Virus record (IMG/VR): IMGVR_UViG_3300027969_000047
Length of the DNA stretch: 64,000 nt
Strand: one strand, 5' to 3'
From: a virus
Below the pieces are notes generated by a model. That model made no database searches. It saw nothing but the letters and a program-made list of their open reading frames with translations, and was not told the DNA's origin. The position numbers were made by a program, and so were the translations under genes. How positions within the stretch are numbered: the first letter of the stretch is position 1; the number at the start of each line of letters is the position of its first letter. Positions 9,212-15,341 of the stretch are shown here, piece after piece.

Positions 9212-9298
9212 TGGTGCGAGTGGCGGGACTCGAACCCGCATGCCTTATTCTGGCGGCAGATTTTAAGTCTGCTGTGTATACCATTCCACCACACTCGC
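9212..9298 (-). tRNA. tRNA-Leu(TAA)
   Basis: cloverleaf, GCAGA-CT-TAA-AA-TCTGC, long variable arm, CCA. Confidence 0.95.
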
Positions 9299-9303
9299 TT
9301 GAT

Positions 9304-9378
9304 TGGTCCGGCGTGAGAGAATCGAACTCCCATCAGAAGGGTAGAAGCCTACTGTACTATCCATTGTACTAACGCCAG
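9304..9378 (-). tRNA. tRNA-Arg(TCT)
   Basis: GTAGG-CT-TCT-AC-CCTTC, TTCGATT loop, CCA. Confidence 0.9.
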
Positions 9379-9792: not shown

Positions 9793-9817
9793 ATAAATTT
9801 GCATTGCTTTTAAAAAT

Positions 9818-9893
9818 TGGTGCTACCTAGAGGAATCGAACCTCTTTCAATGGTTCTTCAGACCACCGCTATGACCACATCAGCTAAAGTAGC
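9818..9893 (-). tRNA. tRNA-Phe(GAA)
   Basis: GTGGT-CT-GAA-GA-ACCAT, CCA. Confidence 0.92.
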
Positions 9894-9894
9894 A

Positions 9895-9968
9895 TGGTGC
9901 TCTCACCGAGAATTGAACTCAGAATTCATCCTTACCAAGGATGTGTTATACCACTTAACTATGAGAGC
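9895..9968 (-). tRNA. tRNA-Thr(GGT)
   Basis: CATCC-TT-GGT-AA-GGATG, CCA. Confidence 0.95.
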
Positions 9969-9974
9969 AATTGT

Positions 9975-10049
9975 TGGTACCTTGTGACGGGATCGAACCG
10001 CCGACCTTCTCCGTGTAAAAGAGTTACTCTACCGCTGAGTTAACAAGGC
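9975..10049 (-). tRNA. tRNA-Val(TAC)
   Basis: CTCT-TT-TAC-AC-GGAG, CCA. Confidence 0.92.
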
Positions 10050-12718: not shown

Positions 12719-12792
12719 TGGTGCCCCATGACAGAATCGAACTGCCGTAACCTGATTACAAAACAGGTGTAATACCATTATACTAATAGGGC
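12719..12792 (-). tRNA. tRNA-Thr(TGT)
   Basis: CCTGT-TT-TGT-AA-TCAGG. Confidence 0.93.
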
Positions 12793-12799
12793 GAAAACA

Positions 12800-12877
12800 T
12801 GGTCTGTGTGGTTGGATTCGAACCAACGGCTCCTCACTTCCAAGGCGAGATGTCTGACCTGACTGACATACACACAG
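12800..12877 (-). tRNA. tRNA-Pro(TGG), second copy, A37
   Basis: CTCGC-CT-TGG-AA-GTGAG. Confidence 0.9.
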
Positions 12878-12885
12878 ATAAAACT

Positions 12886-12960
12886 TGGTGGACCGTAAGA
12901 GAATCGAACTCTTAATTTCTGGTTGCAAACCAGATGTGTTACCATTAGCACTAACAGCCC
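12886..12960 (-). tRNA. tRNA-Ala(TGC)
   Basis: TCTGG-TT-TGC-AA-CCAGA; G3:U70. Confidence 0.95.
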
Positions 12961-13014
12961 GAAATATGTGATTGACTACTTATCTCATTATACGCCATCA
13001 ATCAAGGCGAGTAC

Positions 13015-13090
13015 TGGCTCCTCAGGATGGGATCGAACCACCGACATTCTGGTTAACAGCCAGACGCAACTACCGCTGTGCTACTGAGGA
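13015..13090 (-). tRNA. tRNA-Asn(GTT)
   Basis: TCTGG-CT-GTT-AA-CCAGA. Confidence 0.95.
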
Positions 13091-13096
13091 ATATTC

Positions 13097-13459
13097 TTAT
13101 ACTAACTCGTATTCTAAACTCACGGATTCAGAATAGTAGCCGTTTGATTCTCCCAACCAACGAACATCAACATAACCTTTGCGGGTAGCAAATTTGTAGA
13201 ATGTCCATGTGTAAGAATCATGGTACCCATCTTCCCAACCAGCAGGAGCCTCACCTGATACCTCTTCAGCCATCAACAGTGGTTCACCTTCTAAGTCTGA
13301 CAAGTCACCAACGATATCTTCTATCGAAACGGACTCACAACAATCTTGGTAATGGAAGAAACTGAATCTTTCTTTATCATTAGCAAATGTCATTGTTTCG
13401 CCATCTTGTGTCACCGATGTGAACACTTTACCAACCATATCATTTATATTCATTTTCAA
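13097..13459 (-). CDS. hypothetical phage protein
   Basis: AAGGAG SD; 120 aa ORF with QDCCE and SNGYYSE segments. Confidence 0.8.
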   Translation of the reverse strand: MKMNINDMVGKVFTSVTQDGETMTFANDKERFSFFHYQDCCESVSIEDIVGDLSDLEGEPLLMAEEVSGEAPAGWEDGYHDSYTWTFYKFATRKGYVDVRWLGESNGYYSESVSLEYELV

Positions 13460-15096: not shown

Positions 15097-15126
15097 GCAA
15101 CCTAAGTTGCTATTTTTTACAACTAC

Positions 15127-15169
15127 AAACCAAAATCCCCTAGTTTTTTAGGCTAGGGGATTTTGGTTT
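15127..15169 (-). terminator. intrinsic terminator (putative attenuator) upstream of the tRNA array
   Basis: AAACCAAAATCCCCTAG, 9-nt loop, CTAGGGGATTTTGGTTT; U-rich tail. Confidence 0.85.
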
Positions 15170-15189
15170 ATTTTGTATTGGTTACAAAG

Positions 15190-15309
15190 TTAGCAAAATC
15201 CCCATCGTGTTCCATAATCCGCATTCATATTAATTGAGCATGGGCGTGACTCAACCTGCCAGAGTGCGGCGGGGCTTAACTTAAAGAAATGGGAGATTGT
15301 TTGCATCAT
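15190..15309 (-). CDS. putative attenuator leader peptide (M)MQTISHFFKLSPAALWQVESRPCSINMNADYGTRWGFC containing all 20 amino acids
   Basis: hand translation; perfect promoter with predicted +1 at the second ATG (15306); codons 36-39 are complementary to the terminator 5' arm. Confidence 0.8.
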   Translation of the reverse strand: MMQTISHFFKLSPAALWQVESRPCSINMNADYGTRWGFC

Positions 15310-15312
15310 AGT

Positions 15313-15341
15313 ATTATATATGTTTTTTTATTGCTTGTCAA
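15313..15341 (-). promoter_or_regulatory. perfect sigma70 promoter TTGACA-N17-TATAAT driving the leader peptide
   Basis: attata 15313-15318, tgtcaa 15336-15341. Confidence 0.85.

Follow-up and report, generated by a model that had tools for sequence, protein, structure and literature searches.

In the enterobacterial attenuators trpL, hisL, leuL and pheL, and in the multivalent thrL and ilvGMEDA, a short leader ORF of 14 to 32 codons, holding runs of regulatory codons, and an intrinsic terminator precede the regulated genes, which encode biosynthetic enzymes. The antiterminator overlaps the 5' arm of the terminator, the stop codon is placed such that the ribosome can cover the antiterminator, and a pairing between segments 1 and 2 is possible. 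The leaders of the erm and cat genes respond to another signal, ribosome stalling induced by drugs, with the help of arrest sequences, and they control resistance genes. Drug-induced stalling is also what the leader ORF of vmlR senses in Bacillus subtilis (PMC9226507). In mycobacteria, leaderless short ORFs encoding polycysteine are cysteine-responsive attenuators (bioRxiv 10.1101/834739).

The locus described here would add the tRNA genes of a phage to this list. The window, by which we mean the whole stretch of 64,000 nt that was analysed (IMG/VR record IMGVR_UViG_3300027969_000047), comes from an uncultured T4-like phage whose family B DNA polymerase shares about 51% identity with cyanomyophage homologues, and all its genes are carried by the minus strand. 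Among them is an array of 29 tRNAs serving all 20 amino acids (15033-9212), present as the preliminary description of this DNA had it, and all features which that description placed in the minus-strand element ahead of the array (15341-15127) were found present when we re-examined them. From the evidence given below, we consider it likely that this element is a ribosome-dependent leader-peptide transcription attenuator, with the tRNAs as the regulated genes.

The element resembles the enterobacterial attenuators in its short leader ORF, in the intrinsic terminator that stands ahead of the regulated genes, in an antiterminator that overlaps the 5' arm of this terminator, in a stop codon where a terminating ribosome would cover the antiterminator, and in a possible pairing of segments 1 and 2. 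It differs from them in that it is borne by a phage, that it would regulate tRNAs and not biosynthetic enzymes, that its start is often leaderless, and that its leaders, 35 to 45 codons long, have no codon runs and hold every amino acid (19 to 20 of them among relatives), mostly once or twice each. As in the mycobacterial case, an operon opens with a short leaderless ORF, translation of which is predicted to control downstream expression; the mycobacterial ORFs are devoted to one amino acid and to cysteine-related operons, whereas the phage leader combines all amino acids with an explicit terminator and antiterminator and with tRNA genes. As for vmlR, erm and cat, the proposed likeness is that general trouble in elongation is sensed and leads to read-through or unmasking of what lies downstream, but those leaders rely on arrest sequences and drugs and serve resistance genes, whereas the phage leader has no evident arrest motif and would serve tRNA supply. 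A full-text literature search, whose incomplete coverage makes its outcome absence of evidence only, returned no leader-peptide attenuation of tRNA genes and no leader with all 20 amino acids. While attenuation by leader peptides is a known mechanism, the tRNA-gene target and the sensing logic would be new.

For decades it has been debated what makes phages carry tRNA genes and how these are controlled. One proposal is that the genes counter host defences targeting tRNAs (PMC10264068). If our reading is true, translation itself feeds back on the supply of tRNAs, leader-peptide attenuation acts on tRNA genes as well as on amino-acid and synthetase genes, and an element of about 230 nt in all serves as a compact natural sensor of decoding capacity as a whole.

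The leader element in the window

The element begins with promoter P1 (15341-15313), in which a -35 hexamer TTGACA (15341-15336) and a -10 hexamer TATAAT (15318-15313) are separated by 17 nt. The claim that this promoter is perfect holds: it matches the sigma-70 consensus at 12 of 12 positions and is the best promoter in the 9-kb region scanned, and its sequence is invariant among all members of the window clade. The leader ORF that follows (15309-15190, stop codon at 15192-15190) counts 39 codons from an ATG at 15309, or 38 from a second ATG at 15306. Because the -10 hexamer ends 6 nt upstream of the second ATG, a distance which is 5 to 7 nt in four families of relatives, 15306 is probably the true start; the transcript likely begins on this same ATG, giving a leaderless mRNA, while leaders of ordinary length, 19 to 37 nt, follow the other strong promoters in the vicinity. 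Read over 39 codons, the ORF uses 30 distinct codons and reaches the 20th amino acid by codon 33, as had been described, and its GC content is 0.45, versus 0.38 for the window.

Segment 2, the putative antiterminator strand (15203-15194), falls within codons 36 to 39 and ends 1 nt before the stop codon. It had been presented as an exact 10-nt copy of the 3' arm of the terminator. This is correct in the window, where 15203-15194 is identical to 15140-15131 (repeat family D11), but in the sister haplotypes the repeat is reduced to 9 nt, because one base differs in their terminator 3' arm. It follows from the exact repeat that 15165-15156, within the 5' arm of the terminator (segment 3, 15169-15153), is the complement of segment 2. 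The two pair in the fold of the nascent transcript, from which the terminator 3' arm was left out, with a duplex energy of -16.0 kcal/mol, and the helix encloses a spacer hairpin (15188-15172), so that the hairpin announced between antiterminator and terminator arm is indeed there. According to the fold and a terminator scan, the terminator (15169-15127) comprises 20 pairs, is bidirectional and consists of segment 3, a loop (15152-15144) and segment 4, the 3' arm (15143-15127), followed by a U-rich tail that ends at 15119.

The full-length minimum-energy fold of the leader (z = -5.8 compared with shuffles) has segment 2 paired to the 5' end, namely 15206-15193 with a candidate segment 1, or anti-antiterminator, at 15304-15288. 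In the consensus fold of 6 haplotypes, all substitutions are either unpaired or pair-preserving. A candidate pairing of segments 1 and 2 is seen in the window clade and in the folds of families E and D of the relatives. A possible alternative segment 1 is a C-rich stretch in the middle of the ORF (15246-15240), whose Ser/Thr-Arg-Pro codons are the complement of the G run in segment 2. The Ser/Thr-Arg-Pro motif recurs in families A, D and F (window 15250-15240 and equivalents), and in the family D fold the C-rich segment pairs with the G run; the triplet may thus be kept for RNA pairing, as an anti-antiterminator, and not for the peptide.

Between the terminator and the tRNAs lies a second promoter, P2 (15096-15068, TTGACA-17-TACACT, 10 of 12 positions with a TG extension), which the preliminary description had rightly entered as a caveat. 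A short palindromic hairpin (15123-15096) directly follows the terminator tail and both adjoins and overlaps the P2 -35 hexamer. Next comes a boxA-like leader of the tRNA transcript (15061-15037), before the first tRNA of the array, tRNA-Gln (15033-14960). This 25-nt leader has a 100% identical copy at 14099-14075, and each copy is preceded by a TTGACA promoter and followed by the first tRNA of a unit (Gln and Glu, respectively). The core of the boxA-like motif is kept across diverged phage families and, in some of them, agrees at about 11 of 12 positions with the E. coli rrn boxA consensus. This duplicated leader suggests that the tRNA transcripts are subject to Nus-factor antitermination.

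Relatives of the element and drift of the leader peptide

The window block is about 97% identical across 8 to 9 haplotypes. Scans of viral and metagenome collections with the core motifs returned just these 8 to 9 near-identical haplotypes, which could not serve as a source of covariation, and a covariance model built from the window clade (R1) detected no diverged copy, because it was too specific. Homologues came via synteny instead: with PhoH, 2.4 kb upstream, as the anchor, 80 related loci were collected. The block and a tRNA array at the window position are restricted to relatives with at least 94% identity in PhoH, and no tRNA is found within 7 kb downstream of PhoH in relatives at 92% or less (loci L040-L106). 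Two more distant relatives (G002 and G004) have tRNA arrays with their own leader elements elsewhere in the genome; since leader-bearing arrays sit elsewhere in the relatives at 92% or less, array and leader appear to form a movable module. Immediately upstream of these arrays we found diverged forms of the window layout, a short ORF followed by a terminator, with the last codons complementary to the element's own terminator arm, and one of these ORFs holds all 20 amino acids in 38 codons. G002 has a shorter variant (L113:1431-1570), with an ORF of 26 codons and 18 amino-acid types and no good -35 hexamer upstream. Its stop codon falls within a hairpin of 10 pairs, which shares 3 nt with the terminator, and about 5 nt separate the terminator tail from the first tRNA. 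Cultured phages gave no match to the window block, to the flanking proteins or to the family D or family E elements.

The phage tRNA-Gln gene and the boxA-like leader, neither of which depends on the peptide, then served as anchors for a blind survey, whose automatic pipeline reported the strongest terminator together with the longest ATG ORF ending just upstream. Leaders were pooled if they had 36 to 46 codons and at least 18 amino-acid types; since this filter introduces a bias, the six dropped cases were inspected singly. The dropped cases include two leaderless ORFs with a spurious upstream extension, both complete, four ORFs of 35 to 36 codons in which a Shine-Dalgarno sequence and GTG or TTG have taken the place of the leaderless start (20, 20, 19 and 19 types), and one unrelated GC-rich context. 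Because the 29 survey cases without a terminator are mostly from unrelated lineages, the element belongs to one large T4-like group and is not a property of all phage tRNA arrays. Another lineage (L243, L248, L170, L175, L182 and L210) has, instead of the leader ORF, a different conserved and strongly structured element about 200 nt upstream of tRNA-Gln, which includes a long hairpin with arms about 50 nt apart and has no terminator and no short ORF.

The survey yielded 31 unique leaders of 37 to 45 codons, which fall into 7 families with between-family identities of 0.11 to 0.33; over all cases, ORFs of 35 to 45 codons with 18 to 20 amino acids are found in the 7 families. Three putative modes of translation start are seen: a leaderless ATG, 5 to 7 nt past the -10 hexamer (families C2, D, E and F), a stop-start overlap with the upstream gene, and a Shine-Dalgarno sequence with GTG or TTG. 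In family B, the leader ORF is translationally coupled to an upstream MazG-like gene. All changes in length are in frame, and the ORF stays open across the changes of start mode.

What is encoded seems to matter little. In four families, the variable sites at first, second and third codon positions number 3/5/5, 9/5/11, 26/17/23 and 3/6/7, without any third-position bias, and columns with amino-acid changes outnumber those with synonymous changes only by 6:2, 12:4, 26:5 and 8:5. Judged by these patterns, the peptide sequence is nearly unconstrained.

We also compared the content of the leaders with the arrays behind them. Arrays that are not cut by contig ends serve 19 to 20 amino acids, in line with leaders that hold 19 to 20, and a complete array stands behind a complete leader in the window and in L021, L017, L138, L123, L225 and L227. 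A fine matching of leader content to the tRNA repertoire is nevertheless unsupported, as the two are mismatched in L134, L155, L160 and L172: L134 has 14 tRNAs for 10 amino acids, but a leader with 19, and in L155 tRNA-Phe is absent from the array while Phe is retained in the leader. In this respect the leaders resemble a generalist sensor more than a list of the tRNAs that the phage itself encodes.

Amino-acid completeness, RNA pairing and alternative readings

All 20 amino acids occur in 23 of the 31 leaders, 19 in seven and 18 in one, and complete members are present in all 7 families, which share a common ancestor and are therefore not fully independent samples. The observed frequency of complete leaders, 0.74, compares with 0.0056 for background ORFs from the same loci (n = 709), 0.0064 for 39-residue windows of real proteins, 0.013 for ORFs over tRNA genes (n = 376), 0.009 to 0.021 when sequences are drawn from the leaders' own pooled amino-acid frequencies, and 0.030 for perfectly uniform usage. 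The preliminary description had taken the presence of all 20 amino acids in a single leader as notable. Within the window alone this is at chance level, as the probability is 0.006 to 0.007 per 39-codon ORF and about 200 to 330 ORFs are of similar size, so that about 1 to 2 complete ones are expected; completeness becomes significant through the relatives. The possibility of a chance ORF was dropped upon the family survey, given completeness in 7 families against a background of 0.6 to 3%. The leader is the sole all-20 ORF of 30 to 50 codons in the window. At 40 to 60 codons, four of the five all-20 ORFs of the window are spurious frames over tRNA genes (9214-9372, 9817-9987, 12778-12951 and 12972-13136); taken over all loci, frames that overlie tRNA genes contain slightly more amino-acid types (1.3% complete versus 0.6%).

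In family D, amino acids change in 26 of the 46 aligned columns, yet 7 of the 10 sequences are complete, whereas chimeras obtained by shuffling residues within columns have a mean of 1.3 complete sequences out of 10. In 20,000 shuffles the observed number was never reached, relatedness within the family being ignored in this test. We read this as sub-lineages attaining completeness via different positions, an amino acid lost at one site being compensated inside the same sequence. In family B, Val disappeared from one site and came back at three different ones; the shuffle test is weak there (P = 0.03 on the mean). Completeness is also imperfect, since Phe, Val, Cys, His or Ala is absent from some members.

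The RNA pairing was assessed by duplex energies and by swapping arms between families; column-based pair counts were unsuitable, because MAFFT had put the helices of the families in different registers. When the nascent transcript is folded, the final ORF codons are paired, in every family, with the 5' arm of that family's own terminator, and the helix encloses a small spacer hairpin. Duplexes between own arms have a mean of -19.7 kcal/mol, versus -11.9 (standard deviation 3.8) when arms are swapped between families, -3.5 for other windows of the same ORF and -8.3 for shuffled segments, just 0.17% of which reach the observed mean. The paired segments thus differ between families and covary, while sequence outside them is poorly conserved. 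Relatives had been expected to keep both completeness and antiterminator complementarity while the peptide diverged, and this is what the 7 families display, at identities of at most 33% and with 19 to 20 amino acids in 30 of 31 leaders. In all families segment 2 ends 1 to 10 nt upstream of the stop codon, and therefore a terminating ribosome would cover it; the terminator lies 16 to 33 nt past the stop codon in every family.

Could the same features arise in another way? An attenuator might report only general ribosome availability or coupling, completeness being a by-product of a long, unbiased and unstructured coding track. The narrow range of ORF length, 35 to 45 codons, would suit such a timer, as would the lack of a fine match with the tRNA repertoire and the loss of one or two amino acids in some members. 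However, even usage on its own makes no more than 3% of ORFs complete, family D leaders are complete far more often than chimeras of the same columns, and Val, lost once in family B, reappears at three sites. For these three reasons the data point to selection on amino-acid coverage itself, and we regard the purely general timer as unlikely. The alternative of a stand-alone small RNA gene is more doubtful still. Under it, P1 would serve to make a structured RNA of about 180 nt, with a terminator of its own and a function in trans, and the ORF would be incidental. This reading does account for a self-contained unit running from a promoter to a strong terminator with P2 behind it, for the fold with z = -5.8 and the unpaired or pair-preserving substitutions of the clade, and for a GC content above the genome average. 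Spurious ORFs over tRNA genes are also somewhat richer in amino-acid types. The small-RNA reading does not account for an ORF kept in 7 families through in-frame indels and three start signals, among them an acquired Shine-Dalgarno sequence, and the composition of structured RNA gives all 20 amino acids in 1.3% of ORFs, as opposed to 74% of leaders. Moreover, the element matches no Rfam family, and in many relatives the tRNAs come straight after the terminator, with no promoter. In a weaker version, the terminated leader RNA would have a role in trans besides attenuation, comparable to rnTrpL of Sinorhizobium (PMC6614838).

The conserved and covarying alternative helices, and a site upstream of tRNA genes that would suit an RNA sensing tRNA, could also be explained by a switch independent of translation, the leader RNA binding a ligand or another RNA such as uncharged tRNA, in the manner of a T-box. 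A ligand pocket should be conserved, however, and between families the sequence outside the paired segments is not; nor would such a switch explain the upkeep of the ORF, the position of its stop codon or its completeness. An Rfam cmscan with E values up to 10 gave no T-box or riboswitch match, and only tRNAs and terminator-like chance matches. We hold this switch to be very improbable. Least probable of all, in our view, is that the ORF encodes a small functional protein at the end of an early transcription unit, the terminator being an ordinary operon end. In its favour are the conservation of the ORF and, in family B, the coupling to the MazG-like gene, but the peptides are barely alignable between families (11 to 33% identity), most changes alter the amino acid with no third-position bias, and no Cys or other motif is kept. 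A protein gene would moreover leave unexplained both the completeness and the fact that the last codons always copy the terminator arm of the same family.

Proposed mechanism and the role of the second promoter

For the attenuator that we favour, the following course can be proposed. Host RNA polymerase would start at P1, probably on the ATG, and a ribosome would load on the leaderless 5' end as it emerges, then race the polymerase along an ORF of about 38 codons holding every amino acid. A ribosome arriving in time at the stop codon would cover segment 2, in the last four codons, so that the terminator forms and the transcript ends. If the ribosome is late, whether through any slow codon or because translation failed, segment 2 would pair with the terminator 5' arm, and the polymerase would go on to transcribe the boxA-like leader and the tRNAs behind it. 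The outcome would be a negative feedback between translation capacity and tRNA supply, and tRNA synthesis probably rises whenever translation slows. Translation of the ORF, read-through driven by the kinetic race and by stalling, and a trigger that consists in tRNAs being scarce or cleaved, as opposed to translation slowing for any reason, are what we infer from this architecture. The broadest form of the proposal is a universal sensor of the tRNA pool, widespread in T4-like phages, in which the race of a single ribosome along a leaderless ORF, testing all 20 aminoacyl-tRNAs, would let a shortage or cleavage of any host tRNA, for example by starvation or by anticodon nucleases, call up a full replacement set. 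We put it forward tentatively, as an idea that is rather less likely to be right than wrong.

The balance of the switch may differ between families, as judged from the folds. In family A, the terminator has 17 to 19 pairs and is far stronger than the 10-pair antiterminator; read-through may be rare there, and early stalls may still end in termination. Termination may be the default in the window clade, because the terminator is much the stronger structure and segment 2 pairs with the 5' end as well. In family D, the antiterminator persists in the full-length minimum-energy fold, which suggests that transcription reads through unless a ribosome intervenes.

Whether the leader gates the array or adds to its expression depends on what lies behind the terminator. 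In the window, P2 would supply basal transcription of the tRNAs. It belongs to a module that is duplicated, at 100% identity, ahead of tRNA-Glu, and this second module has neither an ORF nor a terminator. Because P2 follows the terminator, the leader can only add to expression in the window clade, and its regulatory weight there may be small. About half of the related elements lack such a promoter behind the terminator. This is the case for families D and F and for four members of family B, and in family D the terminator is separated from tRNA-Gln by 52 to 56 nt. Since the leader promoter or the upstream operon is the only source of transcripts in these phages, transcription of their arrays needs read-through, and in relatives lacking P2 the leader is predicted to be the gate of the array.

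One further ORF was noticed within the tRNA array itself, on the minus strand (14671-14423). It encodes 82 residues and is rich in Cys. Among cultured phages, its relatives are limited to hypothetical proteins encoded by Pseudomonas jumbo phages (PhiPA3 and phiKZ-like), with E values down to 4e-9.
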